A DNA stretch of 64,000 nucleotides, taken from a virus. Shown in pieces: positions 3,457-60,028 of the stretch. The stretch is from positions 2,954 through 66,953 of IMG/VR virus record IMGVR_UViG_3300046791_000269. One strand, 5' to 3'. The position numbers and the translations under genes are program-made. The notes below the pieces were generated by a model, which did not search any database, was not told the DNA's origin, and worked only from the letters and a program-made list of their open reading frames with translations. The first letter of the stretch is position 1; every line of letters starts with the position of its first letter.

Positions 3457-3462
3457 GCGGGC

Positions 3463-6941: not shown

Positions 6942-6958
6942 GCTACAGTGGCTCTCTG

Positions 6959-23752: not shown

Positions 23753-24204
23753 CAGGTGAACCCATCGAGAGACTCGTTCGTCGCCTGCACGAACAGCATG
23801 CAACGGAGCGGCTTGATTTCGACGTGGACGATGCTGAACCGCTCCCACGCCGGATAGAGAGGTCCGCGCAGGAACACGAAGCGGCTTTCGCCATCCTCGA
23901 GCGCGCGGACAAATTTCGATGTATCGAATCCGCCGCCTGCGAATGCCGGCGTGATGGGTCCGACCGTCCAGAGGTTTCCCGGGGCGTTGCCGAACGGGAT
24001 GTCCTCGCCCTTGGCCTGCTTTACGCGCGGGCTCTGTCCGCCAGCCTCGACGATCGCGAATTCCTCGCGAACGATCGTGCCGTCGCCACTCTCGGGGTCG
24101 GCCCACTCGAAAACGAGCTTGGCTTGGTAGCTGCGAAACCCATACGCACCCGCAATGGCCCGCCCGTTGTAGACGGTGGGAAGTAGGTCGTCGGCGAGGG
24201 TCAT
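23752..24204 (-). CDS. Head-tail connector/neck protein candidate (150 aa)
   Basis: Good composition. Confidence 0.5.
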   Translation of the reverse strand: MTLADDLLPTVYNGRAIAGAYGFRSYQAKLVFEWADPESGDGTIVREEFAIVEAGGQSPRVKQAKGEDIPFGNAPGNLWTVGPITPAFAGGGFDTSKFVRALEDGESRFVFLRGPLYPAWERFSIVHVEIKPLRCMLFVQATNESLDGFT

Positions 24205-25031
24205 CAGACTGGGTGGTGCGCGATGTACTCGGGTTGCTCACCAACTCGAGCGGCAAGGGCACGCGCAAGCACAGCGATCCCGTCTGTCACGTCTGTGGGC
24301 TTGAGCTCGGCGCGACGCTCGGCCACGTGGTTGCGGCGAGCCTCAGCGGAGTTCAGGAGCGCCCGACACTGCTCGACGATGCGGGCCGGGCTGAGCCTCC
24401 GCAGCGGGTCCGTGTCGTTCTCTGTCAGGACGCAAGCGCCGCGGGAGTCGAGGAAGAACGTCCGCGTCTTGTCGCTCGGGTCGCTCTCGCGCTGCTTGAT
24501 GTCCACGATGACCTTGGCGCGGTCTACGAGGGCATTCCGCTCAGCGCCGAAGACGTTGAAGTGGCACTCTGGGTTGAGGCCGGCGTCCTGGAGTTTGGTG
24601 AGTAGCTCTACGCGGCGCTCGGTGAGCGAGCCGTAGAACAGGATGTCGATGTCTTTTGGTACGTCCGCCGGCGTCTGCTCGTACCGACCCGGCTCGACGA
24701 CAGCCAAGCCCGTACCGTAGCCGTGAGCCGAGTCCCACACGCAGAGCGCTCGACTGAGCTTCTCTACGTAGGATGCTGGGAACGACCCGCTGCCGGGGAC
24801 CTCGGTCTGGTAGATGATGACCGGGTAGTTCGGGAGGACAACGCCCTCGCGGTGGGCGCCGATGACGATCTCGATGGCGCCTTTGAGGGCTCCGGCTGCG
24901 TGGTCCTGGGCGAAATCATTGGCTCGCCACACCTCGTGGCCGGCCGCTTTCAGTGCAGCGGCGAGACAATCCGCGATGTCCTCGAGGCACCGCCACCACC
25001 GGAGGCGGGGCAGCACGACCGAGAATTTCAC
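24204..25031 (-). CDS. Glycosyltransferase-like protein (GT-B-like C-terminal region)
   Basis: DIDILFYGSL..R..FNVFG pattern resembling GT1-type C-terminal domains. Weak call. Confidence 0.45.
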   Translation of the reverse strand: MKFSVVLPRLRWWRCLEDIADCLAAALKAAGHEVWRANDFAQDHAAGALKGAIEIVIGAHREGVVLPNYPVIIYQTEVPGSGSFPASYVEKLSRALCVWDSAHGYGTGLAVVEPGRYEQTPADVPKDIDILFYGSLTERRVELLTKLQDAGLNPECHFNVFGAERNALVDRAKVIVDIKQRESDPSDKTRTFFLDSRGACVLTENDTDPLRRLSPARIVEQCRALLNSAEARRNHVAERRAELKPTDVTDGIAVLARALAARVGEQPEYIAHHPV

Positions 25032-25864
25032 GACGGACCGTCAGGGTGGATGTGGACCGGAAGCGGTCCGTACATCTTTACCGCCGGCGCTTGGCCATTC
25101 GGTTTCGACTCGGCCGGCACGCTCGCGTGCGGGTCTTGCCGAACCTCGGGGGTAGTATCGGGCGTGCGGTTCGCCTTGGTGGGCGTAACGTCATCTTCGC
25201 GTGGAACGAAGACCTGCTCGCCGTAGTGCTCGACAACCACGCCGCGATGCATCCAAATCTCGCCGCCGAGGTTCGTCCACCTGCGACAGAACGCGATGTC
25301 CTCGCCAGCGTAGCTAACGCCCTGCTGGAACGTCGGCGACCAGAGCCCCGTGATGATGCCGTAGCCCTTCACTTCGTAGACGAGGCTTCGGTAGGCGCCC
25401 GCCATCCGCTCGATCACGGCCCGCTCAATGAGCATGAAGCCGGCCGGGACGTGCTTGCACTCCCAAAGCGGCAGATCGATCTCGGGGCCGCGCGCCCTGG
25501 CGTTCGGATAGAGGGTCGCGAAAGGTTCGCCCTCTTGGCGCCCCGTGTAGTCGGCGGGGATTTCGCGGTTTTCCTGCTTCTTCGAATATGTGCCGGCGAT
25601 GAACGGCTTCCTCGTGTCGAGGAGTGCCTGGATCTGCTCCGGCCCAAACCCGATGTCCGAGTCCACACAGAGCATGTGTGTCGCTGGACTGTCGAGGAAG
25701 CCGTCGGTCAGGAGGTCGCGATTTCTCGGAAGGATTGGCCCGTGCTTCTGGGCCATCTGCATCCGTTCATGAAAAACATGCGCGGTCCTAAGAACGCCCT
25801 GGAAATACGGGATATGTACGCGGCCGTCATGGGTCGGTGTGCAGAGATAGAGTGTCGGTTTCAC
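25028..25864 (-). CDS. Glycosyltransferase, GT-A fold with DxD motif
   Basis: LCVDSDIGF (DxD) and YAGEDIAFCRRW motifs. Confidence 0.55.
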   Translation of the reverse strand: MKPTLYLCTPTHDGRVHIPYFQGVLRTAHVFHERMQMAQKHGPILPRNRDLLTDGFLDSPATHMLCVDSDIGFGPEQIQALLDTRKPFIAGTYSKKQENREIPADYTGRQEGEPFATLYPNARARGPEIDLPLWECKHVPAGFMLIERAVIERMAGAYRSLVYEVKGYGIITGLWSPTFQQGVSYAGEDIAFCRRWTNLGGEIWMHRGVVVEHYGEQVFVPREDDVTPTKANRTPDTTPEVRQDPHASVPAESKPNGQAPAVKMYGPLPVHIHPDGPS

Positions 25865-28496: not shown

Positions 28497-29360
28497 TCAG
28501 TCGATGAGCGAGGCCGGATCGATTCCGAGTGCCTCGAACTGCTGGAGTGTTCTGGTTGCGGGATCGCCGCTGAGCGGCTGTCCGCCGCCGCCACTTCCGG
28601 GGACACGCGGACCGGGTGGTCCGCCGCCGCCAGTGGGCTTGGGTGCTGCCCGAAAAAGCTTCATCCCTGGCTCTTCGAGAAGAACCGGGATCGCTTCCTC
28701 GAGCGCGATGTCCTCGTCTGCTTCCGGTGCGCCCTTGTACGGGGCGCGCTTCACGCGGAAGAGCGCGTTTCCCTGTTCGTCGACCTTCAGCCGCCCCTGA
28801 ACCAGGGTGAGATGATCGATCGCAATGTCGGTCATGCCGGGCGCGAGCTTGTCGGCGAGCCCCGAGCGGAGCTTCAGCTTCGCTGCGTCAAGCTTTCGAT
28901 TCGTCTCCGACTCGGCACGTAGGCGCGCCTCTTCCTTGCGCGCGGTCTCACTCGCCTCGAGCTTCGTAGCAAGTTCTTGGAGCTGCCGAGCTACAGCGTC
29001 GTCGCTGGCCGCCTTGCCGCCCTTTGCTTTGCCGCCGTCACCGCTGCCGCCGCCAGAACCGCTGTCGTCGGGCTTTGGGATGAGTTCGGTTACGACGGGG
29101 CCAATCAGGCCCTTCCAGTCGACGCCCTTGAGTTGCTCAGCAAGCGCAGGCTGGCGCTTGAGATGACTCGTGACGGCCGCGTTGACGGTCTGGCCAATGG
29201 CCGCGAGCTGCTCTTCCGAGAAGAGCGGCTTCGGCGGATCTCCACCGCCGCCATCGTCTCCAGCCTTGTCCAACAGGGGGAACGGTCGATTGAATAGGAG
29301 CATGCCAATCCTCTTCCGGCCGATGGCTGTGGCCGTTCGCCTTGTGGGGGCGTTACCCAT
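28497..29360 (-). CDS. Capsid scaffolding protein
   Basis: Gly-rich linkers plus a long charged coiled coil, located between the portal and capsid genes. Confidence 0.65.
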   Translation of the reverse strand: MGNAPTRRTATAIGRKRIGMLLFNRPFPLLDKAGDDGGGGDPPKPLFSEEQLAAIGQTVNAAVTSHLKRQPALAEQLKGVDWKGLIGPVVTELIPKPDDSGSGGGSGDGGKAKGGKAASDDAVARQLQELATKLEASETARKEEARLRAESETNRKLDAAKLKLRSGLADKLAPGMTDIAIDHLTLVQGRLKVDEQGNALFRVKRAPYKGAPEADEDIALEEAIPVLLEEPGMKLFRAAPKPTGGGGPPGPRVPGSGGGGQPLSGDPATRTLQQFEALGIDPASLID

Positions 29361-34956: not shown

Positions 34957-35405
34957 TCACCGCGCGCACGCCCTCACCCTTCCCGAATTTGATGTCTCTT
35001 TTGAGTCACTTTCGTTACCTTCGAGGGTTGCTACGTCGGATAGGTACTGGGCTGTAAGCCTGCGCCAGCTTTCAAGATTCCTGAGTCTTGATCCGTGGTC
35101 GTTCACTTGCCGGTGTAGGTGTCGTGTTTTGGAGCTGAGGTCGGCTACGTTCTTCTCGAGGTCGGACAGCACGCGCTCCTCGGGCAAGCGGATGCGGTCG
35201 AGCGCGTTCGCATTCACATAGATGCGTCCGCGCCACCGCTTGTGGAACTTCTCGCCGTGGAACTCCTCAGCCGCACGTAGGGCCCTGTAGGCGTACTGTC
35301 GCCGCGTTCGCCGGCTGCTGTTCTTGAGCTTCTCGTCCGTGCCGGCGAGCCGACGCCCGAGATCGCTCAGCTGGATCCAGCGGTCGTTACGCGGCTCATT
35401 CACTG
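34957..35405 (-). CDS. Hypothetical protein (about 149 aa)
   Basis: C-terminal part of track ORF 34957-35862 is protein-like. GTG start overlaps the upstream stop (GTGA). Confidence 0.4.
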
Positions 35406-36158
35406 CTCCGCCTTCGCCGGGTCGTACTCCGGCAAGAGCGCCCGCCGCTCGCCCACACGACGCGGCTTCTTCGCCTCGTCCTTGGCCGTCCGCCATGCCG
35501 CGTGGTCGCCCTTGGCGGCATCCTCCGCGAGCTTCAGTGCCGCGCCGATGACTCGCCCGCTCTTGCCCTTGTTCGGGTCCTGGCAGGCAACCAGGAGCTT
35601 GGCCGGGTCGTCGCACAGGTGGAACGCAAGGGCCGCAGCACGACCAAGCCTGGCCTCTGTGCCCTTGCGCGCATGAAACCCGGTCGGCTTCTGCGGCTCG
35701 ACAGCGCCGTACTTGGTGATCGCCTCGACGCTCGGGCAAGCGTCCTTGGCCTTGGCGCCGAAACCTTCGTCGCTCCGGAACTGCGCCGGCGGGGCCTTGT
35801 ACCAAAGATCCAACCGGAACCTCACCGGCTTGGGCAGCGTCGACCACGCCGCCGAAAGCCACCGGTGCCGCTCCACCGAGCCGATCACCGTGTTGCCCCA
35901 GCCGATCTGCTGGTCGTCGTACAAGTCGGTGTTTGGCACACCCGTGAACGGTCCGCCGTGCTCGAGCTGGGCGATCGTTCCGCCCAGGGTGCCGCGCTCT
36001 CCCATTTCCGCGTCGCCCATCACGAGCAGGAACTCGAGGTCAGGGTCGAACGCCTCTTCGCTGCGTTGTCGTGGTCTCTTGGATTCTGTCGCCACCGGGA
36101 TCAACCCGGTAGCGCTGTCACCGTCTGCCATGGTAGGTTTCTCCTTGAACGCCGCCAA
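35400..36158 (-). CDS. Hypothetical protein (252 aa)
   Basis: Good composition. Confidence 0.5.
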   Translation of the reverse strand: MAAFKEKPTMADGDSATGLIPVATESKRPRQRSEEAFDPDLEFLLVMGDAEMGERGTLGGTIAQLEHGGPFTGVPNTDLYDDQQIGWGNTVIGSVERHRWLSAAWSTLPKPVRFRLDLWYKAPPAQFRSDEGFGAKAKDACPSVEAITKYGAVEPQKPTGFHARKGTEARLGRAAALAFHLCDDPAKLLVACQDPNKGKSGRVIGAALKLAEDAAKGDHAAWRTAKDEAKKPRRVGERRALLPEYDPAKAEQ

Positions 36159-36210
36159 GCAGTTCTCGGAGCGCCTCGGTCACGAGCCGGGGCGTTTCGT
36201 CGTTTCAGGT

Positions 36211-36576
36211 CTACCAGTGGTCGGCCCGCTTCCACCGGGACTCACTGAAGCTATTCGTGAAGTCAATCAGACTGGGTAATTCGCCTGTTCGTTTTACGAA
36301 GTGCCGCTCGGCTACGCTGTGCGGGACCGTGGCAAACAGCGGCACGCCTCTCACATCAGATGCGTTGAAACTGAGCGGGCCGTCGCCGAACACGCCGAAC
36401 GGCATCCCGCTCCACCCCATCAGCGGCAACCCGTCCATCAACACGGGATACCAGCGCCCGGACCTCCACCCGCCAACAAACGAGTAAGCCCTCACGACCG
36501 GCTCCGGAACGAAAATCCCCGCCGCCGTGGCGGTCAGGGCTTGGAGGAGCTGGCGGCGGTTCACGGCAACTCCCAC
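36211..36576 (-). CDS. Small Tat-signal (twin-arginine) secreted protein
   Basis: N-terminus MGVAVNRRQLLQALTATAAGIFV. Confidence 0.5.
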   Translation of the reverse strand: MGVAVNRRQLLQALTATAAGIFVPEPVVRAYSFVGGWRSGRWYPVLMDGLPLMGWSGMPFGVFGDGPLSFNASDVRGVPLFATVPHSVAERHFVKRTGELPSLIDFTNSFSESRWKRADHW

Positions 36577-36806
36577 TCTCTGACGACATCGACCGGCACC
36601 GGCTGCACGACGCGGCCCTTGATGATGAACGCGCCCTCGGTCTCGTTCAGGTTTTCACCGGGACAGCTCGCGAGCCATTTCGGCGCGCTCTCTCCCTCGC
36701 CCCAGTAGCCGCTGGCGAGTTTGTGGCGCAGGTCGGTGGCTGTGTGCTCCGTGACGTACACGTCGCCATCCTCGGTGCCCCTGATCACGTAGAACATCTC
36801 GGTCAT
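36561..36806 (-). CDS. Hypothetical protein (81 aa)
   Basis: Start lies inside the 33-bp repeat copy 1. Confidence 0.45.
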   Translation of the reverse strand: MTEMFYVIRGTEDGDVYVTEHTATDLRHKLASGYWGEGESAPKWLASCPGENLNETEGAFIIKGRVVQPVPVDVVREWELP

Positions 36807-36835
36807 TCCGTTCCTTTCGGTTCGTGCAAAACGCA
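36803..36835 (-). repeat. 33-bp direct repeat copy 1 (TCATTCCGTTCCTTTCGGTTCGTGCAAAACGCA)
   Basis: Matches 40428-40460 with 1 mismatch. Confidence 0.9.
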
Positions 36836-37027
36836 GCCGAAGTCGGGCGGGGTCAGAAAGTCCACGTCGGCTCGTCCGTATCCGCCGTCGAATGGCGCCT
36901 CAAGCCGAGGCAGTGCGTCGCCGTCGACGGGAATGCGCACGCAATGCCCGGCACCGTCCTTGCGGGTCTCGCGGCGCCGCCAGAACTTGCAGCTCCCGCA
37001 CCTCGGCTCCGGCCCGGAGATCATCAA
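36803..37027 (-). CDS. Small Cys-containing protein (74 aa). Its C-terminal 10 aa (CVLHEPKGTE) are encoded by the repeat
   Basis: Cys pairs CGSC..C; ATGA coupling. Confidence 0.4.
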   Translation of the reverse strand: MMISGPEPRCGSCKFWRRRETRKDGAGHCVRIPVDGDALPRLEAPFDGGYGRADVDFLTPPDFGCVLHEPKGTE

Positions 37028-37950
37028 GCCACCATCTCTCTTCCCCCAACCCGCGCTAGCCTCGCCATCGTCTCCGCCACGCCCTCAACGAGCGACCCGG
37101 TAAACGTCATTCCGGCCCGCTCGATCTTCTCTCGCGACACCACGTAGGAAAGCTGGTTCATGATGGGCGAGTCGACGAACACGGTCTCGAGCCTCGGTGC
37201 GTGTCGCCGGATGATCTCGACGATCTGCCCAACCGTCGCGTTTTCGGTCACAACGTTGTAGGTCTCGCCACCGAACAGGCCGCGCTCCACAGCGAACCAG
37301 ATCGCTCGGCACGCATCGAGGATGTCGAGATACGGCCGCCCCTGATCGAGCGCCGTCCGCCACACCGTGATCGGCTGCCCCGTGCTCGCCTGCCAACAGA
37401 ACCGGTTGACCGCCGTGTGAAAGCGCATGCCCGGTGAGATTCCGAAGATCGTTCCAAAGCGCAGGATACATGCGTCGTGTCCGCCGGCCCTGAGCATCTC
37501 CTCGCCCCTGGTCTTGCTCTCTGCGTAGGGGCTCTGTGGGACGACCGGAGACGCCTCGGTGACGATGCCCTCGTTCTGCCCGTAGACGCTCGTGGACGAG
37601 GCGAACACCGGACGGGCGCCGACTGCACGACAGGCCGCCGCCACTCGCTCGGTTCCCTGGAAGTTGACGCGCTCAACCTCAGCCGCTCGTCCAAAGCTCG
37701 TGGCCGCGTCCGTCAGGGCCGCGAGATGAACGACCGCCCCGCAGCCGTCGAGTAGCGGCTCTAGCTCACTCGTCACCACGTCGGCCTCGGTGAACTGAAA
37801 TCCGATACCGCGTGGCAAATCGAACAGCGAGCAGAGCCGCTGGGTCGAAAGGTTGTCGATGAGCCGGACCTCCTCGAATTGGCCGGGCTGGATCGTGCGG
37901 ATGAGCGCCGAGCCGATGTGGCCGAGTGCTCCAGTGATAGCGATTTTCAT
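37024..37950 (-). CDS. NAD-dependent sugar-nucleotide epimerase/dehydratase (SDR family)
   Basis: MKIAITGALGHIGSALIR Rossmann motif. Internal ATG of track ORF 37024-38496. Confidence 0.8.
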   Translation of the reverse strand: MKIAITGALGHIGSALIRTIQPGQFEEVRLIDNLSTQRLCSLFDLPRGIGFQFTEADVVTSELEPLLDGCGAVVHLAALTDAATSFGRAAEVERVNFQGTERVAAACRAVGARPVFASSTSVYGQNEGIVTEASPVVPQSPYAESKTRGEEMLRAGGHDACILRFGTIFGISPGMRFHTAVNRFCWQASTGQPITVWRTALDQGRPYLDILDACRAIWFAVERGLFGGETYNVVTENATVGQIVEIIRRHAPRLETVFVDSPIMNQLSYVVSREKIERAGMTFTGSLVEGVAETMARLARVGGREMVA

Positions 37951-38825
37951 GGGTGCTCCGTGTAGTGCGCGCGAGTGAGCTCGATACCCTCTGTGATCCA
38001 CACGGCCGGACGCCAGCCCGTGGCGTGGCGGAATGCCGACGTGTCCATCACCGCGTTCCGTGTGTCGATCGCAGCGAGTACGGTGTCCGGCGTTACGTGC
38101 TTGAAGTTGCCGCCCGCGGCAATCGCCGCCACCCTTGCGAATAGGTGAGCCGCTCCAGAGCCGACAACGAAGTGCCGCCCGTTCGTCGTGGCCTGGTTGG
38201 CCGCAGCGAGCATGAACGCCCGACACACGTCGTCGAGGTAGACGTAGTCCCGGGTCCAGTCTCCGGCGCCGTAAACCTGGACCGGTTCGCCCCTGGTTGA
38301 CTGTCGGATCATTCGGTTCAAGACGCCGCGCGTCGGGCCGCTCTCGCTCGTGCTTTGGCCGTAGACGTTGGCCAGTCGGAGCGTGCAGCCGCGTGCCCAT
38401 CCGCGCCGGCAGGCGTGCTCGAGCGCCATCTCGGCCATGCATTTGTGTAGGTCGTAGACGGTGAGCGGTGCGTCGGTCATGCCCTCGTGAATGCAAGACT
38501 CTGCCGGCACGCCAACCTGCGTGGCCGCGCCCGCGAATACGATGAACGGCTTTGGCTCGTGCCCGCGGAACTCCTCGATTAGCCCGTACATGGGCTCGAC
38601 GTTCGCGGACAGATCCTCGAGCGGGTCCTCGTCAGCGTCGCGCGCGCTCGTCTGCGCAGCAAGGTGGAAGACCACCTCGACATCCTTGTCTGGGCCAACA
38701 GCCGCCCCCGCCTCCACGAGCATTTGTACCAGACGCGAGCCGATGTACCCGCTTGCGCCCGTGACGGCGCAGCGTCGGCCCTTGAGCCACTCGATCGCGT
38801 TCAACGGATCTCCCTCTTCAGCCAA
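37947..38825 (-). CDS. NAD(P)-dependent SDR reductase/epimerase (RmlD-like size)
   Basis: VTGASGYIGSRL motif; about 292 aa. Confidence 0.75.
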   Translation of the reverse strand: MAEEGDPLNAIEWLKGRRCAVTGASGYIGSRLVQMLVEAGAAVGPDKDVEVVFHLAAQTSARDADEDPLEDLSANVEPMYGLIEEFRGHEPKPFIVFAGAATQVGVPAESCIHEGMTDAPLTVYDLHKCMAEMALEHACRRGWARGCTLRLANVYGQSTSESGPTRGVLNRMIRQSTRGEPVQVYGAGDWTRDYVYLDDVCRAFMLAAANQATTNGRHFVVGSGAAHLFARVAAIAAGGNFKHVTPDTVLAAIDTRNAVMDTSAFRHATGWRPAVWITEGIELTRAHYTEHP

Positions 38826-39253
38826 TCGTAGCCGATGGCTGGATCGTTGTGCGGGATCCGTAGCTCGTCGTCCGGGTTGTACTCATGCGAGGTCACATAC
38901 AGGAGCTCGCAGTCGGTGAGAGCCCGGCAGCCGTGCGCCACGTTCGTGGGCACCCTGACGAGCCGAGCCGGGTGGTCGTCGCCCATCAGGATCTCTTGCG
39001 TCTCCTTGTGCGTCGGGTTGCCGTCTCGCATGTCATGCATGACGAGGAGCAGGGCGCCGCGCACCACGTACCACCAATCGATCTGCCGGCGATGCAAGTG
39101 CCACGCCTTGATCGCGCCGGCCCGCATGCGCGAGTGGCTCAGTTGCCCGAAGCCCTCAGCGAAACACGCGTCGGTCTTTCGGACGATCTCGCGGAAAAAT
39201 CCCCGCTCGTCGTCGCGGGTGTCCAGGTTTCTGAGGACAACGCCGGAAATCAT
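38801..39253 (-). CDS. Cupin NDP-sugar 3,5-epimerase / 3,4-ketoisomerase (RmlC/FdtA-like)
   Basis: ERGFFRE..WHLHR His pair; about 150 aa cupin. Confidence 0.65.
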   Translation of the reverse strand: MISGVVLRNLDTRDDERGFFREIVRKTDACFAEGFGQLSHSRMRAGAIKAWHLHRRQIDWWYVVRGALLLVMHDMRDGNPTHKETQEILMGDDHPARLVRVPTNVAHGCRALTDCELLYVTSHEYNPDDELRIPHNDPAIGYDWLKREIR

Positions 39254-40431
39254 AGGATCTTGACCTCCGGCACGTGCGTGATGAACCGGCCACCGCGCTC
39301 GCGATAGGCTGTCTCTTTCGCCAGGATCTCAGCCGCGTGGTTCCAGGCGAACAGGAGCATGTAGTCCGGTGGGTCAGCGTAGAAACGCTCGGGCGAGACA
39401 ACCGGGATGTGGACGCCGGGAGAGAGCTTCCCTTGTTTCCCTGGCGTCGTGTCGGTGATGTACTCGATGAGTTCGGGTCCGATGCCGGCGTAGTTCGTGA
39501 CGGTCGTGCTCTTGGACGTTGCCCCGTAAGCTGCCACGCGCTTTCCGTCACTCTTGAGCGTCTCGAGCAGGCCGCGCAACGTTGCGCACTTCGCGTCGAC
39601 TCGTTCCTGGAATGCTGCGTAGGCCGCCTCGTCGCCAAGACCCAACACAACCTCCTTGCCGAGCAGGCGGAACACATCGTCTGAGGCCGCCCGCTCGCCC
39701 CGGCACGCCACGGTGTACCGCATTGAACCGCCGTGCGTCACTTGCCACTCCGCGTGGACAAGCTCGAGGCCGGCCGCGTTCGCCAGTGCCGCAACAGACG
39801 TGAGCGAGAAGTAGGACGCGTGCTCGTCGTAAATCTGATCGAACGAGCAAAGCCTCAGAATGTCCCCCAGGTAGGGTTCCTCGAAAATGAACAGGCCGGG
39901 CGGTTTCAAAAGGACAGCAACGCCCCGAAAGAAGTCCGCCGGGTCCGGGACGTGGCAGACGACGTTGGACGCGATCACGGCGTCGGCTTGCCCGTGCTCC
40001 TTGACCAGATCGCCGGCCCGCTCCTCCGTGAAGAACCCGCCCACGACGGTGAGGCCACGTTCACGCGCCGCATAGGCAACGTTGGCGCTCGGCTCGATGC
40101 CGAGATGCCGCCGACCCGCGAAATGCTGGAGCATGATCCCGTCGTTGCAGCCAATCTCAACGACGAGCCCACCCGATGGCGTGCGTGACTTCACCGACTC
40201 GGCGAACGCGGCGAAGTGCTTGGCCATGGCGGAACTCGACGAGGAGTAGAACGCATACTGATCGTGGAACATCCGCTCGGGTGGGACGAGGTCGAGCAGC
40301 TGGACCAGCTTGGTATCCGGGTCGAAACCCGCGCGGAGCGGAAAGCGGGGCTCGTCTGCGATCTCTGCCGCGTCGAGAAAGCCGTTGGCTATCGGCATCG
40401 GGCCGAGGTCGAGGAAGGGGCGGAGACTCAT
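39250..40431 (-). CDS. NDP-hexose C-methyltransferase-like SAM-dependent methyltransferase (TylC3/TcaB9 family)
   Basis: LDLGPMPIANGFL N-terminus, class I SAM fold (VVEIGCNDG), C-terminal C-methyltransferase-like domain. Start inside repeat copy 2. Confidence 0.7.
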   Translation of the reverse strand: MSLRPFLDLGPMPIANGFLDAAEIADEPRFPLRAGFDPDTKLVQLLDLVPPERMFHDQYAFYSSSSSAMAKHFAAFAESVKSRTPSGGLVVEIGCNDGIMLQHFAGRRHLGIEPSANVAYAARERGLTVVGGFFTEERAGDLVKEHGQADAVIASNVVCHVPDPADFFRGVAVLLKPPGLFIFEEPYLGDILRLCSFDQIYDEHASYFSLTSVAALANAAGLELVHAEWQVTHGGSMRYTVACRGERAASDDVFRLLGKEVVLGLGDEAAYAAFQERVDAKCATLRGLLETLKSDGKRVAAYGATSKSTTVTNYAGIGPELIEYITDTTPGKQGKLSPGVHIPVVSPERFYADPPDYMLLFAWNHAAEILAKETAYRERGGRFITHVPEVKIL

Positions 40432-40460
40432 TCCGTTCCTTTTGGTTCGTGCAAAACGCA
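40428..40460 (-). repeat. 33-bp direct repeat copy 2
   Basis: TCATTCCGTTCCTTTTGGTTCGTGCAAAACGCA. Confidence 0.9.
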
Positions 40461-41090
40461 CAGCTTCCCGATCGAGTACGCCAAATTCTCTCGCGCCTTT
40501 TGCTCCCACCGCTCGCGTCCGTAGTCGGTGAAATAGATGCGCGGCCGCTCGAGGAACTTCTGGAGAATGGCCGCCCGCCCTGCCGCGAATTGCTCGTCGC
40601 CGATGAAAGGCCACTCGAGCCGGACGAGCCGCTCGTAGTCGTCGAAAGCCTCACGGTCGGCGCCGAGGATGGCGATGTCAGCATCAGATAGGATCGCCTC
40701 GTCCGGTTTCAAGTCGTGCGCGTCGTGGGCCGTGGCCATGATGAGCCGCTCAACCGTTGCCGCGAGGTCTGGGCGGCCGGCAGTCGTGAGCATCTTCCGC
40801 GCGCAGTCCGCCGATGCGAACTCGTCATCAGGTAGTCCCTGCAAAACGAAGTCGTGATACCAGGCGGCCCAGCGCAGAGCGGCCGTCTCGTCGGGCGTTC
40901 CGTTCCACATCGGCGCCGCCGTGATCTGATCGATGCGCGTCAGAACCCACATGATGTGATGGAGCGTGTGGTAGTGGCGCCGTGCTCCGCTGTACGCCTG
41001 GACGAGCGAGAGGAAAACGGCGTTCCCGTTGCCCTGACAGTTGGTGTCGCCCCAGAGGCGGTTGAATTCGATGCGGGGGATGAGGTTCAC
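40428..41090 (-). CDS. HD-superfamily metal-dependent phosphohydrolase-like protein
   Basis: RHYHTLHH ... WYHDFV His/Asp motifs. C-terminus CVLHEPKGTE is encoded by repeat copy 2. Confidence 0.55.
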   Translation of the reverse strand: MNLIPRIEFNRLWGDTNCQGNGNAVFLSLVQAYSGARRHYHTLHHIMWVLTRIDQITAAPMWNGTPDETAALRWAAWYHDFVLQGLPDDEFASADCARKMLTTAGRPDLAATVERLIMATAHDAHDLKPDEAILSDADIAILGADREAFDDYERLVRLEWPFIGDEQFAAGRAAILQKFLERPRIYFTDYGRERWEQKARENLAYSIGKLCVLHEPKGTE

Positions 41091-49010: not shown

Positions 49011-49913
49011 TCATGAGCCGGTTTCCTTGGGAGCGAAGAGGGCGGTTTGGCCGGCGACCATGCGGCGTCGCGTCGAGTCGGATCGCTCGGCTTTGATGAT
49101 CTCGGCGGCCAATTCCGCGGTCTTTCTATCGACGTCGCAACCGATGAAGCGACGGCCGGTTCGGAGGGCGGCGATGCCGGTGGTTGCGGCCCCGCACACC
49201 GAGTCGACCACCAGGCCCTCGACGAGCGAGTAGTCCTGGACGATCTGGATCATGGCGCGCTTTGGTTTGCCGCCGACGATTCGGTCTGACCCATCGGCTG
49301 AGTTCTGGTCACGCTCGCCAGGGACAGCGTACCAACCCGTCAAAGTTCCCCAACTCTTGAAGTCTGCCCCTTTCGGGCGGGCCACCATGATGAAACAGGA
49401 CCAGTTGCTCGGTCCGTCTCCGTGCATGCGGACACGCGAGCCGGTCTCGATGAGCGGAATGGACGGGAACGTGACCCGGTCCTCAGCCTCGTACGCGGCT
49501 CGCCAGTGCTGCGAAAGAACGTCATCGGTGATCGAGACGAGCCACCCGTTCGTGAGTGGCGACCAGAGCTTGACGAACCGGTCGACGTCCGCGGGCGTCC
49601 AGGCCGGATAGTCGATGTCGCGCCGTCCGCCGCTACCCTCGGCTGCCTTTCGAGCCGCGTAGGCGCGTTCGTTCTTTGCGTTCGCCCGGCTGAGTTTGTT
49701 CGAAAGCGGGCGCCTTGCGAACGCCTCGGCACGGTTGGCCGTCATCTTCCCCTGGCTGTGCCCGGCGTGAGTCTTGTCGCTGTACGGCGCATCCACACAA
49801 AGCAAATCCGCCTTCCGCTCGCCCATCACCTCGGCAACGTGCTCGGGGTTGAGCGAGTCGGCGTGCCAGATTTCGGCAAGGTCGTCGCGGAACAGGCGGT
49901 CGGGATGGCTCAC
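49011..49913 (-). CDS. DNA methyltransferase (N6-adenine/N4-cytosine, beta-class), orphan
   Basis: DAPY motif (LCVDAPYSD) near the N-terminus and SAM-binding VVDSVCGAATTGIAA near the C-terminus. Confidence 0.8.
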   Translation of the reverse strand: MSHPDRLFRDDLAEIWHADSLNPEHVAEVMGERKADLLCVDAPYSDKTHAGHSQGKMTANRAEAFARRPLSNKLSRANAKNERAYAARKAAEGSGGRRDIDYPAWTPADVDRFVKLWSPLTNGWLVSITDDVLSQHWRAAYEAEDRVTFPSIPLIETGSRVRMHGDGPSNWSCFIMVARPKGADFKSWGTLTGWYAVPGERDQNSADGSDRIVGGKPKRAMIQIVQDYSLVEGLVVDSVCGAATTGIAALRTGRRFIGCDVDRKTAELAAEIIKAERSDSTRRRMVAGQTALFAPKETGS

Positions 49914-50302
49914 GCGCTCCGCCTTTCCTGAATCCCAACAGCCCGCAGCGCCTCACCAACCGAACGAACGACCGCGTACCGGACACCGTGCCGCTCAGCC
50001 TTCACCTGCCAAGCTTTCTGCGTGGCGGACTGCTTGCCCTTGATGGTCTTGCACTCGATGGCCATCAGCGTGCCGACGCGATCGCTCTCAAAGTTGCCGT
50101 TCCCGTCGAGCATCAGGGGCGTTCGCTTCACGTCCAGCGGCTTGACCGCGAAGATGTCCGGCCCGCCCGCCTCGCCCTGCCGGAAGAACCGGCGGGACTT
50201 GCCTGTGCCTAGAACGAGCGCGCCGGATTGGTTACGCCACGCCCAGACGCCCTTAGCTTTCAGGGCGTCGAGGACAGCGCGGACGAGAATTCCCTCGCTC
50301 AT
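49910..50302 (-). CDS. VRR-NUC domain nuclease
   Basis: GGPDIFAV ... AIECK. Confidence 0.7.
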   Translation of the reverse strand: MSEGILVRAVLDALKAKGVWAWRNQSGALVLGTGKSRRFFRQGEAGGPDIFAVKPLDVKRTPLMLDGNGNFESDRVGTLMAIECKTIKGKQSATQKAWQVKAERHGVRYAVVRSVGEALRAVGIQERRSA

Positions 50303-50658
50303 TCGCTCCCCCTCCGCAAAACCCAGTCCTTCACGTCATCCACGTCGTAGAAGATCGGCCGGCCGAGGCGCTGCATTTCGAGAGCCTCGCCGCGCGCGCC
50401 TTTGGACGCTTCCCAGCCTGGGATGAGCAGGATCGCGTCGCAGGCACGGCATAGGGCGAGGGTGCCGGCTACATAGAAGTCATACCCCTGGAGAACCTCG
50501 TACTGCGGATGATCGGTGTTCTTGTGCGGGACGACCGGGTAAGCGCAGACGCGCGCGAGTTGTAGGCCGTAGTACTCCGCCGCCGCGATGTTCTTCTCAA
50601 CCTCGTGGCGCAGCGGAGCGGTGAATTTCCCGGCTACGTAGACTAGGGGCGGGGTCAT
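50299..50658 (-). CDS. Nucleoside 2-deoxyribosyltransferase-like protein (DUF4406-like)
   Basis: LVYVAGKF...RNI..AEYY-type fold signature. Internal ATG of track ORF. Confidence 0.5.
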   Translation of the reverse strand: MTPPLVYVAGKFTAPLRHEVEKNIAAAEYYGLQLARVCAYPVVPHKNTDHPQYEVLQGYDFYVAGTLALCRACDAILLIPGWEASKGARGEALEMQRLGRPIFYDVDDVKDWVLRRGSE

Positions 50659-51461
50659 TCGGCGGCCTTCGCTTGCGGCACCGGGAATTCGCGCGGCCAG
50701 TTGCCGGGGATTTCGGTGAGGTCGCCGCCCTTCTTGCTGCGGAGCCTGATCGGGTTTCCGCCGAACTGGGGCTTTGCCCCGAACTGCTTCACGAATGGCG
50801 GAACGCCAGCGATCCGGCACTGCTCGACCAAGCCCTGAACCCAGGCCAGATCCGTCGCGCGCGATCCGCCGCCACTCTCCCCGCCGACGATGACCCACGA
50901 AATACCATCGAGGTCCGCGGTGATGGGCCCAAGCATCGGCTCGCACGAAACGAACCGCACGCGAGCCGGCAGCCGCTTCAGGAACTTGACGCGCTTGTCC
51001 CAGCCGGCCTGATCGCCGGCGGTCGTTCCCATCCAGACGTTGTTGGGAAAGCCGTCGTTCATCCAGTGCGGCGGAACGAGCGCCGCCATGTTCTGCGGAC
51101 GCTTGGTAAGGAGCTGGTAGTCGAGCCAGGGCGTCTGCTCAATGAGCGGCCAGAACGCGGCGCGCACACGGTCCATCTCGCGCCCCACGTCGTCGTTGCG
51201 CCGCTCGCCGATGTCCATCATCGAGCCGCAGAACACGCGCGCTTTCTCGTCTGACAGGCACGCGTCCCTGTTCCATTTGAGCGGCAGGTCGAGGTGCTTC
51301 TGGCCGAAGAACCGCCGAGCACCCAGGCCCCACACGTCGTGGCCGGTACGCTTGGCAAACGCCCGCGCGTAGCAGTGATCGCACTCCGGGCCGTCCTCGA
51401 CGCAGCCCCACCAAAGGTTGTGCGTGTGTGTCGTCCACTCGATTTTCGTTTCAGCGCCCAT
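50655..51461 (-). CDS. Phage Gp37/Gp68 family protein (DUF5131)
   Basis: TKIEWT..NLWWGC..C..C N-terminus, typical of the family. Confidence 0.7.
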   Translation of the reverse strand: MGAETKIEWTTHTHNLWWGCVEDGPECDHCYARAFAKRTGHDVWGLGARRFFGQKHLDLPLKWNRDACLSDEKARVFCGSMMDIGERRNDDVGREMDRVRAAFWPLIEQTPWLDYQLLTKRPQNMAALVPPHWMNDGFPNNVWMGTTAGDQAGWDKRVKFLKRLPARVRFVSCEPMLGPITADLDGISWVIVGGESGGGSRATDLAWVQGLVEQCRIAGVPPFVKQFGAKPQFGGNPIRLRSKKGGDLTEIPGNWPREFPVPQAKAAE

Positions 51462-51651
51462 GATGGCCTCCGCTCATCCCGACAACCCGCCTAACCCATT
51501 CACCCCTCGCCCTCCGCTCCGACTCCGCCCGCTCGATCGCCGCAAGCCACGCCTGGTGCTCGACCGGCGGGATGACGTGGGCGATGACTGGGGAGGGCTT
51601 TCCGAGGCAGGTCGAAAAGCGCTGGTGGGGGAAGTGGATAATTTTGCTCAT
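51451..51651 (-). CDS. Hypothetical protein (66 aa)
   Basis: Internal ATG (MSKIIHFPHQ..). Confidence 0.35.
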   Translation of the reverse strand: MSKIIHFPHQRFSTCLGKPSPVIAHVIPPVEHQAWLAAIERAESERRARGEWVRRVVGMSGGHHGR

Positions 51652-54171: not shown

Positions 54172-54421
54172 CTAGGAGCGCTCCTGAGTGAATTGATGGT
54201 CACGACCGACGGGATGAAAGACGTTCAAGTACGCGGCGACCAAAAGAGCGACGCCGATCAGCGCGAGAAGTTTCCAGGCCCTCACCGCCAGGCCCTACCG
54301 TTCGCGATCACGAAGTCTCGATCGGTGCGCGACACGGCCCTGAGCCCCGGCGCACGAACCCGTAGCGCGGCGAAGACGAATGCAAAGCCGGACAGGGCGA
54401 GGAGGTAGGCGGCGAGCATTA
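54171..54421 (-). other. Two unlisted small transmembrane-peptide ORFs (about 37 and about 48 aa)
   Basis: VRAWKLLALIGVALLVAAYL.. and MLAAYLLALSGFAFVFAAL.. read manually from the sequence. Confidence 0.3.
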
Positions 54422-55387
54422 CTTCCCAACCATCGCCGGGCTCATGATGAACTGCTGCCCCGCCGGAACCATCATCACGCTGACGTTCGGTGAGAGCTTT
54501 TGCGCGAAGATGTACTGTGTCAGTGCCGGGCTGATGCTCTTCGCCAGCTTCTCGTTCGCCTCGGCCTCTTTGGAAGCAAGAACTAGGTTCGCGTCGGCTT
54601 GCTTCGTTGCGTTGATGAGCACCGCATCCGCCTTGCCGCGCGCTTGCTCGATTGCCTGGTCCGCTCGGGCACGCTCAGCCGCAACCTTTTCCCGCTCGGC
54701 GAGCGCAAGCTGGCTCTGCGTCTGCTTCTCCTCGATCGCCGCCTGGAACTTCTGATCGAACGCGATGTTGTCGATCAGCAGGTCCCGAACGTCGATGCTG
54801 TCCGAGCTGAGTTCCCGCTGGAGTCTGGCACGAACGGCGCGGCGGATGTCCTCACGGTGTGGAGCGATGTCCACCGACCCGTACTTGACGATCTCGTCCT
54901 TGTGGGCCTGGAGAACCCGGGGCGCCACGAGAACCTCGAAGTAGTTCGCGCCAACCTCACGATAGAGCCGCTGAATGTGTGACGGTGAAACGTGGATGTT
55001 CAGCGTGGCATTGACGTAGACTTGCTGCGTCTCCTTGCTGAAACAGTGCAGCGTGTCATCGTAGTCAGCGGTGCCGTCGTCTTTCCTATGCATGGCGAAC
55101 TTGTGCCCGAGCACCTGGATCGACGCCTGCTCGACCGACTGCCACGGGAGAACCCACTGCATTCCTTCCGGGCGCTGACCGGCGATGGCGCCGAAAGACC
55201 GGACGAGTCCGACGTTGCCGGCGTCCACGCTGTTGTACGACGAAACGGAGGTGGCGATGATCAGACCCGCGAGGCCAACAAGGAGCGCCACGAACCGGTA
55301 GGGCTTTACGTCCTCGTCCTTGCCCATGATCCAAACGATGGCAGCGAGAGCGGCGGCGAGCGAAACGAACAGAATGATGAAGCCCAT
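54419..55387 (-). CDS. SPFH/Band-7 (stomatin/prohibitin/HflKC-like) membrane protein
   Basis: N-terminal transmembrane helix, SPFH core and a C-terminal Ala/Gln/Glu coiled coil. Internal ATG (MGFIILFVSL). Confidence 0.7.
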   Translation of the reverse strand: MGFIILFVSLAAALAAIVWIMGKDEDVKPYRFVALLVGLAGLIIATSVSSYNSVDAGNVGLVRSFGAIAGQRPEGMQWVLPWQSVEQASIQVLGHKFAMHRKDDGTADYDDTLHCFSKETQQVYVNATLNIHVSPSHIQRLYREVGANYFEVLVAPRVLQAHKDEIVKYGSVDIAPHREDIRRAVRARLQRELSSDSIDVRDLLIDNIAFDQKFQAAIEEKQTQSQLALAEREKVAAERARADQAIEQARGKADAVLINATKQADANLVLASKEAEANEKLAKSISPALTQYIFAQKLSPNVSVMMVPAGQQFIMSPAMVGK

Positions 55388-55391
55388 GTGT

Positions 55392-55526
55392 TTATTTCCC
55401 TTGTGTGAATGTCTCAGGAAGAATTGACGCTCGAGTGCACTCCCGCCCCGCCTCAAGCCTCCCGAGCTGGTACGAGAGGAATACGGCGAGGGCGGCAATC
55501 AGGCACAGGACGGCTCGGTAGATCAT
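55392..55526 (-). CDS. Small membrane peptide (44 aa)
   Basis: MIYRAVLCLIAALAVFLSY; ATGA overlap. Confidence 0.35.
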   Translation of the reverse strand: MIYRAVLCLIAALAVFLSYQLGRLEAGRECTRASILPETFTQGK

Positions 55527-58944: not shown

Positions 58945-59186
58945 GCTACTCCGTATCCTGGGGCTACTGCGCGGAAAGCGGCGCGACCGTGCCGACGCTG
59001 GACGCAGCGATCATCGTCGCGCTGACCGTCTGGCACGAGTACGGCGGAAAGATGCCGCGAATGTCCGTCCCGCCGCGCATTGCCAACGACGACCGGGTTG
59101 ACGGTGACTGGGATGGCGAGCGCTACCGGTTCTTTGACGGTCTCGACGACGACGAGCGGGAACGCTTGGAAATGGCTGGGTTATGA
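58941..59186 (+). CDS. Hypothetical early protein (81 aa)
   Basis: Coupled. Confidence 0.4.
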   Translation: MSYSVSWGYCAESGATVPTLDAAIIVALTVWHEYGGKMPRMSVPPRIANDDRVDGDWDGERYRFFDGLDDDERERLEMAGL

Positions 59187-59572
59187 GGCCGCTATCCCAA
59201 CCCAATCAGCGCTGGAAGATCAGTCGCGAGATGCGCCGCCATCCGCAGTTCCCGACGCATGACTACATCCCTGAACGAATCCACCAGCCGACAGGCAAGG
59301 AGTTGGCGCGCCTCGAGAAGAGCAATCACCGGGAGGCGCTCTACGACGTGCTCGGCGGGCGCTGTTGGTACTGCCACGACATCGCGGACCCGCTGACGAT
59401 CGACCACTTCGTCGCCGTGTCGAAGGGCGGAGCTGACTCGCTCGAAAACATGGTTCCGGCGTGCGAATCGTGCAACCGGCTCAAGGGCAGCCACCCGGCC
59501 GATCATTTCCTGTTCAAGACGGTGCGCAAGGATCCGCGATTCGATGCGGCGCGACGACGGGTGTCACCATGA
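59183..59572 (+). CDS. HNH endonuclease
   Basis: CWYCHDIADPLTIDHFVAVSKGGADSLENMVPACESCNRLKG. Confidence 0.75.
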   Translation: MRPLSQPNQRWKISREMRRHPQFPTHDYIPERIHQPTGKELARLEKSNHREALYDVLGGRCWYCHDIADPLTIDHFVAVSKGGADSLENMVPACESCNRLKGSHPADHFLFKTVRKDPRFDAARRRVSP

Positions 59573-59766: not shown

Positions 59767-59857
59767 CGGCCAGAAGCGGGTCCAGGCGATGCGACGTGCT
59801 CCCCCCTCACGTCCCGCCTGGCCCGGCTTGTGGCCACCGAGTCCGAACGGAGAGCAA

Positions 59858-60028
59858 ATGATCTACCGCGTAATTCTCCAGCGTGCCGTCTCCGAAGAGG
59901 CCGCAATCGAAATCGAGGCTGGGTCTCCCGAGGAGGCCGAGGACACCGCGCGCACCCGCGAGTCAGACGGGATGGTTGCGTGGGTGAAGACGCACGAGGA
60001 AGTGGAGGCGCTCGCATGTCCAACGTGA
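59858..60028 (+). CDS. Small acidic protein (56 aa)
   Basis: Internal ATG (MIYRVILQ..). Confidence 0.3.
   Translation: MIYRVILQRAVSEEAAIEIEAGSPEEAEDTARTRESDGMVAWVKTHEEVEALACPT

Follow-up and report, generated by a model that had tools for sequence, protein, structure and literature searches.

A phage-borne gene module predicted to make methyl-branched sugar nucleotides, and the duplicated gene end that brackets it

The 64,000-nucleotide stretch of DNA analyzed here (positions 2,954 to 66,953 of the IMG/VR virus record IMGVR_UViG_3300046791_000269, hereafter the window) is almost entirely the genome of a temperate, contractile-tailed phage. On its minus strand, between two copies of a 33-bp direct repeat, it carries four adjoining genes for a sugar C-methyltransferase, a cupin and two extended short-chain dehydrogenases/reductases (SDR-A and SDR-B), which, judging from their family assignments, probably make a methyl-branched sugar nucleotide. 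This uncommon phage accessory pathway is real, and it joins two known kinds of feature, namely glycan genes that phages carry and mosaic junctions that fall at gene boundaries. The main new result concerns the repeat which, by the alignments described below, is the native, family-conserved 3′ end of a small gene for a four-cysteine protein (the Cys gene), its upstream copy being a fragment of a Cys-family gene end that is fused in frame to a phosphohydrolase gene of the HD superfamily (the HD gene) after ...SIGKL. The best overall explanation, which we hold with moderate confidence, is that a mobile four-gene tailoring module resides in a temperate phage and that the repeat is the scar of its insertion.

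Read along the minus strand, the genes are HD, C-methyltransferase, cupin, SDR-A, SDR-B, Cys and a gene for an 81-residue protein of unassigned function, and all seven junctions from HD through the gene that follows the 81-residue one are stop/start overlaps (ATGA, TTGA, GTGA or TGATG). The HD-superfamily phosphohydrolase (40428-41090, 220 residues, phrog_19425) ends in a 10-residue tail that appears foreign to its family, and it is followed by the TcaB9/KijD1/TylC3-type NDP-sugar C-methyltransferase (39250-40431, 393 residues), assigned from Pfam and Protein Data Bank (PDB) profile matches, and the RmlC-like cupin (38801-39253, 150 residues, PF00908). Both SDRs belong to PF01370, SDR-A (37947-38804, 285 residues) being a putative 4-ketoreductase or 4-dehydrogenase and SDR-B (37024-37950, 308 residues) lying nearer to 4-epimerases/4-dehydrogenases than to dehydratases. 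The four-cysteine protein (36803-37024, 73 residues) belongs to a family of small phage proteins with the pattern CxxC...C...PDFGCVLHEPK, and the start codon of the 81-residue gene (36561-36806) lies inside the downstream repeat copy. The five genes that the initial annotation had placed between the repeats are present in the order it gave. Its picture of one bracketed cassette stands for the four-enzyme module from methyltransferase through SDR-B, which is conserved elsewhere, but not for the Cys gene, a separate small phage gene that owns the repeat; gene and repeat are both specific to this genome. The 81-residue protein had no match in family profile scans (Pfam, PHROG) and no relatives in viral or metagenome contigs, and lookup of its exact product returned the same locus only, with no second contig; lookup of the exact HD product found no record.

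A pattern search of the whole window found the repeat at 36803-36835 and 40428-40460 and nowhere else, the copy number being exactly two with up to three mismatches allowed, and dinucleotide-preserving shuffles of the window gave 0 expected matches. A repeat search returned the same pair at 97% identity (32/33) and a spacing of 3625 bp. Both copies read TGC GTT TTG CAC GAA CCR AAA GGA ACG GAA TGA on the minus strand, each encoding CVLHEPKGTE and a TGA stop codon that is overlapped, as ATGA, by the ATG of the following gene; this content, and the bracketing by two copies with one mismatch, had been described from the sequence at the outset and were confirmed by both searches and by an independent assembly. 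The sole mismatch is a C/T difference at position 16 in a synonymous proline codon (CCG versus CCA), the longest exact run common to both copies is 17 bp (exact identity amounting to 17 + 15 bases), and identity breaks off abruptly at both edges of each copy. The upstream copy (40428-40460, minus strand) holds the last 10 HD codons, the TGA, and the methyltransferase ATG with the bases just upstream of it, and the downstream copy (36803-36835, minus strand) holds the 3′ end of the Cys gene, the TGA and the overlapping ATG of the 81-residue gene. The independent assembly is a 5336-bp contig (L001) from the Logan assembly of run SRR26075152, which was made by a different assembler, is 100% identical to window positions 35701-41036 and spans both copies including their one-base difference. 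An assembly artefact, the weakness that had been foreseen for the repeat, is very unlikely because this contig reproduces both copies and because their longest exact shared run is only 17 bp. A convergent origin of the two copies is ruled out by the identity of 32/33 nucleotides, synonymous sites included.

The gene to which the repeated sequence belongs was identified from the relatives of the Cys protein and of the HD protein. A word-based homologue search with the Cys protein returned only itself, and its family was found by an exhaustive HMMER search, which gave 24 representatives at E<1e-3, small proteins of about 63-90 residues. In their alignment C9, C12, C28 and C64 are invariant, F62, G63 and C64 are invariant or nearly so, and the C-terminal consensus is TxPDFGCVLHExK, with several members ending in ...PDFGCVLHEPK; the 3′ ends of the genes are similar also at the DNA level among unrelated phage contigs. 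Family members lie on short contigs of unrelated small phage open reading frames (ORFs), with no link to HD, sugar genes or the 81-residue gene in the contexts examined. The HD protein matches the phosphohydrolase profile phrog_19425 (E 2.6e-27) and, weakly, PDB profiles of YedJ-like HD hydrolases, and it has 26 homologues with invariant H..H and HD residues. The CVLHEPKGTE tail is found in 0/13 of the aligned HD homologues, the closest of which (62% identity, on contig L002) ends in ...SIAKLEAAE, and the DNA homology of L002 to the HD gene of the window ends at 40461, one base short of the repeat. Because the Cys-family consensus holds PDFGCVLHExK and the HD homologues are without the tail, the repeat is taken as native to the Cys gene. 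As it now stands, the upstream copy ends the HD gene with its stop codon and contributes a purine-rich stretch (AAAGGAACGGA) as well as the start codon of the methyltransferase.

The HD gene was also considered as a member of the sugar pathway and was ruled out, its 62%-identical homologue in L002 having other neighbors (an integrase-like gene follows it, and there are no sugar genes). Two side observations concern the Cys protein: the family profile matched high-potential iron-sulfur proteins weakly and short of significance (E 0.04), and the central part of the protein matches four repeated stretches in each of three other proteins of very large size (P0150, of 2979 residues, P0151 and P0153).

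By its profile and motif matches the methyltransferase is a member of the TcaB9/KijD1-type family and belongs to a lineage with a short N-terminus and without the zinc-site cysteines. It scores above the cutoffs of PF08421 (Methyltransf_13, 1.1e-12), PF13489 (Methyltransf_23, 1.1e-18) and PF08484 (Methyltransf_14, 1.8e-52), and over its full length it matches KijD1 (5t64) at 2.4e-110 (residues 5-393 against 24-416), TcaB9 (3ndi) at 1.4e-106 and the mycarose 3-C-methyltransferase 4rv9 at 2e-76. This three-domain architecture, with matches to KijD1 and TcaB9 at ∼1e-110, bears out the TylC3/TcaB9-type assignment first proposed. The S-adenosylmethionine (SAM)-binding motif EIGxNDG (E92, G94, N96, D97 and G98) and residues Y201, D202, E203 and H204 of FDQIYDEH are invariant in the homologue alignment (A4), and both motifs align with KijD1. 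In TcaB9 the Tyr/Glu/His cluster reportedly has a catalytic role, known from mutagenesis of that enzyme, and the TcaB9 structure is said to contain an N-terminal four-cysteine zinc site with two CxxC motifs. The phage protein starts ∼20 residues later than KijD1 and has no cysteine at either CxxC position. Loss of CxxC together with the short N-terminus is common to the three closest phage-type homologues (P0029-P0031), and CxxC loss is seen also in the IMG/VR segment L003 considered below. In cellular homologues within the same alignment, the CxxC motifs range from fully intact (P0032 and P0095) to half-degenerate.

Judging from where its relatives are found, the four-gene module passes from phage to phage as a unit. 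Among the homologues of the methyltransferase the nearest three, which are 71%, 68% and 63% identical to it and all have the short N-terminus, come from phage-like contigs (L005, L006 and L007), in which the order methyltransferase-cupin-SDR-A-SDR-B is kept as far as each contig reaches, SDR-A being 64-68% identical in L006 and L007. Upstream of the module these contigs carry unrelated small ORFs with GTGA or ATGA overlaps of their own. Homology of L007 to the window is confined to 40420-37124, and downstream of the module this contig has an HNH gene, with no Cys gene after SDR-B; the 33-bp motif and the Cys gene are associated with the module in none of the three. Because the same order recurs with unrelated flanks and without Cys gene or repeat, the conserved unit is the four enzymes, and the modularity that had been suspected from the repeat is borne out by these contigs. 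The next-closest methyltransferases (56-58%) are cellular, and the two cellular contexts examined (L040 and L042, from metagenome-assembled genomes) are Wzx/Wzz/GT4 polysaccharide clusters, where a methyltransferase of up to 58% identity co-occurs with an SDR that is 53-54% identical to SDR-B; L042 also has an SDR that is 47% identical to SDR-A. Two further segments from IMG/VR (L003 10001-13267 and L004 10001-11528) encode methyltransferases of 41-44% identity followed by a cupin-like segment, with an SDR-B homologue of 42% identity in L003, and because of them the association of methyltransferase, cupin and SDR reaches beyond the close phage group.

Such a cassette had been called unusual for a phage, and this is borne out by GenBank, where the methyltransferase has only 8 weak matches among 50,697 phage records, the best of them (33% identical) in a 642-kb phage and the best matches altogether in phages over 600 kb. 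The window from 35.5 to 43 kb has no DNA match to GenBank phages, and no TcaB9-type sugar C-methyltransferase module in a phage was found in the literature searched. The suggestion that the cassette was recently acquired is not supported: GC content is 63-66% throughout, with no anomaly at the cassette, and the closest copies of the module are only 63-71% identical.

The cupin matches PF00908 (dTDP_sugar_isom) at 1.1e-22 (81 bits, cutoff 27) and the RmlC structure 9j9s at 2.3e-13, and its His (WHLH) and Tyr (LLYVTS) align with RmlC positions; catalysis by RmlC uses a His base, a Tyr acid and supporting Lys and Asp residues. It is a putative C3 and/or C5 epimerase of a 4-keto sugar nucleotide. 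Of its former label, RmlC/FdtA-like, the first half is retained through PF00908 and the second is not, the only matches listed being dTDP_sugar_isom, Polysacc_synt_C and a weak Cupin_2, with none to the FdtA family at E<=0.01. Both SDRs match PF01370 (SDR-A at 1.8e-34, starting only at profile position 62, and SDR-B at 1.4e-36) and contain the GxxGxxG and YxxxK motifs (GASGYIG and YDLHK in SDR-A, GALGHIG and YAESK in SDR-B). SDR-A starts at a TTG that overlaps the cupin stop codon (it would have 292 residues from an alternative TTG at 38825) and is without about 30-40 residues between the first Rossmann strands (GxxGxxG helix/second strand) and the VFHLAA strand. The shortened form is kept in its phage relatives (L006 and L007, with 288 residues in L007), and the 47%-identical bacterial homologue has 313 residues.

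The best solved relatives of both SDRs are 4-epimerase-like enzymes. For SDR-B the best PDB matches are 6wjb, 6zl6 and, as the third-best, 6vo6, which is probably Cj1427 of Campylobacter jejuni. Both proteins fall far below the cutoffs of the 4,6-dehydratase model TIGR01181 (SDR-B 74.9 and SDR-A 54.9 bits, cutoff 365.1) and of the RmlD model TIGR01214 (SDR-B 67.6 and SDR-A 25.1 bits, cutoff 224), and the Pfam RmlD_sub_bind match is stronger in SDR-B (1.9e-19) than in SDR-A (5.7e-7), which is the gene that had been named RmlD-like. The catalytic motif of the 4,6-dehydratases has Asp-Glu after Ser/Thr (S-T-D-E-V-Y-G); at the same site SDR-B has SSTSVYG and SDR-A has GAATQVG, with no Asp-Glu in either. 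The proposed reading of both proteins as SDRs stands through PF01370, and the RmlD-like assignment, given the scores below TIGR01214, is not established.

For C-methylation by the TcaB9-type family a 4-keto sugar nucleotide is required. The larger ORFs scanned across the window included none for a nucleotidyltransferase, a 4,6-dehydratase or any other sugar enzyme, and as the cassette is without a dehydratase, there are two possible substrate routes, by way of a host 4,6-dehydratase or by SDR oxidation at C4. In the predicted pathway a host-supplied sugar nucleotide would enter the module either as an NDP-4-keto-6-deoxyhexose made by the host 4,6-dehydratase or as an ordinary NDP-hexose or NDP-deoxyhexose that one of the SDRs would oxidize at C4. 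The methyltransferase would transfer the methyl group of SAM to the carbon beside the 4-keto group, which by analogy with its solved homologues would be C3, the cupin would epimerize C3 and/or C5, and the other SDR would reduce C4, giving a C-methyl-branched sugar nucleotide. If the SDR-oxidation route is used, the product need not be 6-deoxy. The initial annotation had specified a 6-deoxyhexose, and this is not established, since neither SDR meets the dehydratase or RmlD models or has the Asp-Glu motif and the window is without a nucleotidyltransferase. A serial precedent for the predicted steps is provided by the Campylobacter series Cj1427 (C4-dehydrogenase), Cj1430 (C3/C5-epimerase) and Cj1428 (C4-reductase) (PMC10680097).

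On paper, recombination between the two repeat copies deletes 3625 bp and leaves the HD and 81-residue genes intact and directly adjoining, the predicted junction in minus-strand orientation being CTCGATCGGGAAGCTG-TGCGTTTTGCACGAACCRAAAGGAACGGAATGA-CCGAGATGTTCTACG. The reciprocal product is a circle of 3625 bp that joins the Cys gene to the methyltransferase gene by a coupled junction and leaves all five ORFs intact, with the predicted junction CCCGCCCGACTTCGGC-TGCGTTTTGCACGAACCRAAAGGAACGGAATGA-GTCTCCGCCCCTTCC in the same orientation. The clean excision that had been proposed is to this extent correct, every ORF being kept intact in both products, and the segment from HD to the 81-residue gene therefore equals one cyclic unit plus 33 bp. 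Product lookups and searches of viral and metagenome contigs, with the 33-mer and with terminase relatives, found no cassette-less relative, deletion variant or circle junction: the exact 33-mer has no match in the viral or metagenome collections, and none of the relatives reached through the large terminase keeps the region upstream of the terminase.

We infer that the repeat is a recombination scar of the insertion of the module rather than a site dedicated to recombination. An intermediate, circular or concatemeric, that carried a Cys-family gene could have integrated, most of one Cys copy being lost later, a loss that would also stabilize the insert; a fragment longer than unit length could have inserted directly; or a 33-bp patch could later have restored translational coupling. 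Because the copies run in the same direction and both stop at the edge of a gene, rare recombination between them would cut out exactly 3625 bp and set free a circle of five genes. The 17 + 15 exact bases are marginal homology for host recombination, and a stretch of this size falls inside the range that has been considered for the relaxed homologous recombination carried out by phage recombinases (PMC3945230). Among the genes of the phage is one for a RecE-like exonuclease VIII (59767-60870, plus strand; phrog_412 at 4.5e-68; DUF3799/PDDEXK), which is preceded by an HNH endonuclease (59138-59572, plus strand). A transposon target-site duplication was rejected as the source of the repeat, there being no terminal inverted repeats and no transposase among the five genes, and the duplicated sequence being coding sequence of the Cys gene.

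The surroundings of the module are those of a phage, as had been claimed. The window contains genes for an integrase, DnaB-like helicase, primase, large terminase, portal and major head protein, for a single-stranded DNA-binding protein, replication initiator, DNA methyltransferase, baseplate J protein, GH16-domain protein and AAA ATPase, and gives weaker matches to sheath-like and tape-measure-like proteins. The cassette lies in a long minus-strand operon between the replication and packaging genes, ∼12 kb from the integrase. A consensus scan for promoter and terminator sites at the cassette gave nothing above shuffle expectation, the sigma-70 consensus being a weak test at a GC content of 64%.

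Two proteins of the structural operon, encoded between the capsid and sheath genes, are candidates for using the sugar, and it is plausible that this glycosyltransferase-like pair consumes the sugar nucleotide made by the module. They are a GT-A-like candidate of 278 residues (25028-25864, minus strand) and a GT-B-like, Glyco_trans_1_2-like protein of 275 residues (24204-25031, minus strand), their genes being coupled by a GTGA overlap. The GT-A-like candidate matches phrog_1574 (3e-18) and, weakly, a glycosyltransferase PHROG (6e-4). In the alignment of its family DSD and ED..FC are invariant, and 3/6 members match, below the cutoff (2.7e-4), Pfam Anp1, which is presumably a mannosyltransferase family; one homologue is annotated as Mnn9-like and another adjoins a group-1 glycosyltransferase in Pelagibacter phage HTVC023P. 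The GT-B-like candidate gave no profile match itself; a homologue of 59% identity (L008:880-1686) matches PF13524 at 4.4e-4 (20.7 bits, cutoff 25), and BLASTP of the candidate against annotated glycosyltransferases gave no match; nor did a PDB profile search with the two candidates. The pair is conserved in L008 and L021, and the pair, or at least its first gene, is present in the structural modules of related phages. The initial reading of the two as glycosyltransferases thus keeps some weak signals, obtained mostly through homologues, and loses its firmness, none of these signals being above threshold. Less certain than the pathway itself is the last step, in which the two proteins would use the product during lytic growth to decorate virion proteins.

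Several observations weigh against one part or another of the explanation that we favor. The tails of HD-family proteins vary from 0 to 19 residues and some end in xGxE, so the argument for a foreign tail from the HD proteins by themselves is soft, and it is the Cys-family alignment that carries the case. The cupin is below the RmlC equivalog model TIGR01221 (61.6 bits, cutoff 155.75), has 150 residues against about 183, shows a gap or Trp at the position of the RmlC Lys and ends before the C-terminal Asp region, and the roles of oxidation and reduction are not assignable to either SDR from sequence alone. No relative conserves the region from HD to the 81-residue gene, which would show how it was arranged before the insertion and which of the routes was taken. 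No annealing protein of the RecT, Erf or Rad52 type was recognized near the RecE-like exonuclease. Neither glycosyltransferase candidate has a Pfam match of its own above threshold, and a single-sequence AF2 model of the candidates was unusable (pLDDT 33). Finally, the related phage MW202476, a complete genome of 77 kb, has the GT-A-like gene and no C-methyltransferase, and the pairing of glycosyltransferases with the cassette is therefore not obligatory.

That separability is one of the points in favor of lysogenic conversion, in which the module would be expressed from the prophage and its product transferred by host glycosyltransferases to the O-antigen, capsule or S-layer glycan of the host, changing the phage receptor and blocking superinfection, the virion not being the target. 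Because the cellular relatives of the module are polysaccharide genes, this is a serious rival, and we give it a real, if clearly minor, chance of being right. The nearest cellular homologues of the methyltransferase and of both SDRs lie in Wzx/Wzz/GT4 surface-polysaccharide clusters, the phage is temperate and has an integrase, and the cassette has no glycosyltransferase of its own. However, the cassette is in the middle of an operon with stop/start overlaps on both sides and, in the weak scan noted above, without enrichment of promoters or terminators, and its place beside the packaging genes, ∼12 kb from the integrase, is an unusual site for conversion genes. Other rivals concern the repeat. 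It is unlikely, though less so than the mobile circles considered below, that the module already lay beside HD and that an ectopic 33-bp piece of the Cys/81-residue junction took the place of the original HD/methyltransferase junction through template switching or gene conversion and persisted since it coupled translation of the methyltransferase to that of HD, in which case the repeat would be uninformative on how the module arrived. The copy is exactly a gene end plus the purine-rich AAAGGAACGGA plus ATGA, its 3′ edge falls on the ATGA that is common to operon junctions, and the methyltransferases of the relatives begin at the same position behind differing GTGA or ATGA junctions, all of which would fit such a patch. 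It would, however, need a precise in-frame event with no longer homology evident at the 5′ edge, and there is no independent sign of an earlier adjacency of HD and module, the HD homologue in L002 having other neighbors.

A different view of the same boundaries is that the 3625-bp unit is an active cyclic element, similar to PeSL mini-circles or integron cassettes, that moves between phages with the 3′ end of the Cys gene as its attachment sequence. The reciprocal circle is a closed five-gene operon in which every junction is a stop/start overlap, the segment from HD to the 81-residue gene exceeds one unit by just 33 bp, the Cys-gene 3′ end, being conserved as DNA across unrelated phage contigs, could provide the common homology, a RecE-like exonuclease is among the phage proteins, and there are precedents in the PeSL mini-circles (PMC2839356) and in relaxed phage recombination (PMC3945230). 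Yet the module occurs in three other contigs without Cys gene or repeat, the window has the motif in only two copies and the exact 33-mer is absent from the viral and metagenome collections searched, the exact 81-residue product is on no second contig and the word-based search with the Cys protein returned the window protein only, no site-specific recombinase is evident, and the 17 + 15 exact bases are marginal; we consider an element of this kind improbable. The fuller version, in which a mini-circle cassette would travel by portable Cys-gene homology and also feed a branched sugar to the virion through the structural-operon glycosyltransferases, is slightly more improbable still, and if true it would be both a new vehicle by which phages exchange accessory genes and the first case of a virion glycan with a branched sugar. 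Least credible of all is that the repeat marks a mis-join that brought in a cassette from a bacterial contig. The source is a 66,953-bp JGI metagenome contig and repeats can mark mis-joins, but the contig from the second assembler spans both copies (5.3 kb at 100%), one base sets the copies apart, the reading frames run on without a break and have coupled junctions at either side, the GC content is uniform and other phage-like contigs carry the module. An insertion scar left by a mobile four-gene module remains the explanation that we prefer.

Some further features of the window were noted in passing. ARAGORN called a tRNA-Ser (anticodon CGA) at 29183-29258 (plus strand), within the minus-strand head-gene region, between the portal and major head genes and overlapping ORF 28497-29360; it may be a true tRNA of the phage or a spurious call. 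The GH16-domain protein (2563-3462, minus strand, 299 residues, 1.2e-18), ∼7 kb from the baseplate J gene, may act as a glycan depolymerase of the virion and, if so, would suggest that the receptor is a polysaccharide. In the early region a DNA methyltransferase-like protein and a DUF5131 protein (4.9e-60; phrog_2045 at 1.3e-66) are encoded ∼0.7 kb apart (49011-49952 and 50655-51473, both minus strand) and may form a DNA-modification pair. A gene for an SPFH/Band 7 protein (54419-55498, minus strand, 2.6e-21) adjoins the integrase, a typical site for an accessory gene expressed in lysogeny. Several homing-type nucleases are scattered through the genome, including an HNH_3 signal in ORF 6908-7528 (plus strand, 4.7e-12) and a weak HNH PHROG match (0.003) in ORF 35400-36179 (minus strand), ∼0.4 kb downstream of the 81-residue gene.

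If the product of the module decorates virions or host glycans, a methyl-branched sugar would be added to phage glycobiology. Methyl-branched sugars are unusual epitopes that, as we see it, might resist common glycosidases, and they would bear on receptor masking, on the immune recognition of therapeutic phages and on superinfection exclusion. The compact operon, with its methyltransferase free of the zinc site and its minimal cupin and SDR, could also serve as a set of tools for making branched sugar nucleotides. In the repeat there is a clean natural case of a foreign operon that appears to have entered a phage genome at a stop/start overlap through reuse of the conserved end of another gene, and its arrangement allows deletion and circle junctions to be predicted precisely.

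Each part of this arrangement has its counterparts among known systems. As an accessory block between conserved phage modules, absent from the complete phage MW202476, the cassette resembles phage morons, from which it differs in that it has no promoter or terminator of its own that was detected and no deviant composition and is translationally coupled to its neighbors. In the PeSL cassettes of T4-type phages, recombination between short repeats at gene boundaries deletes or circularizes accessory genes (Arbiol et al., 2010, PMC2839356). Those repeats are promoter/terminator motifs that occur at many boundaries, whereas here the repeat is coding sequence in two copies; a recurring boundary motif of the PeSL or integron kind was not found, there being two copies in 64 kb and none in the other contigs that bear the module. 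Glycosyltransferases of mycobacteriophages modify capsid and tail proteins, according to the work of Freeman et al. (2023, Cell Host Microbe 31:1216) as cited in PMC11256854. The likeness here is the candidate pair of glycosyltransferase-like genes in the structural operon, and a dedicated supply module for C-methyl sugars is not described for the glycosylating mycobacteriophages in the literature searched.

The closest enzymatic counterparts are bacterial. TcaB9 of Micromonospora chalcea, KijD1 of Actinomadura kijaniata and the TylC3-type enzymes have the same three-domain architecture with the SAM-binding and YDEH motifs, and the phage enzyme differs from them in being ∼20 residues shorter at the N-terminus, in missing both CxxC motifs and in being encoded by a phage and not in an antibiotic cluster. 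The Cj1427/Cj1430/Cj1428 trio of C. jejuni works through the steps of SDR oxidase, cupin epimerase and SDR reductase, by way of a 4-keto sugar nucleotide, that are predicted for the phage enzymes, and it does so in bacteria, with GDP-heptose substrates and without a methyltransferase (PMC10680097). The polysaccharide clusters of L040 and L042 have the same set of a methyltransferase and two SDRs, in their case with glycosyltransferases interleaved with a flippase and Wzz and with no cupin in the regions seen, whereas the phage version is a compact four-gene operon that includes the cupin and in which the methyltransferase and SDR-A are both shortened.

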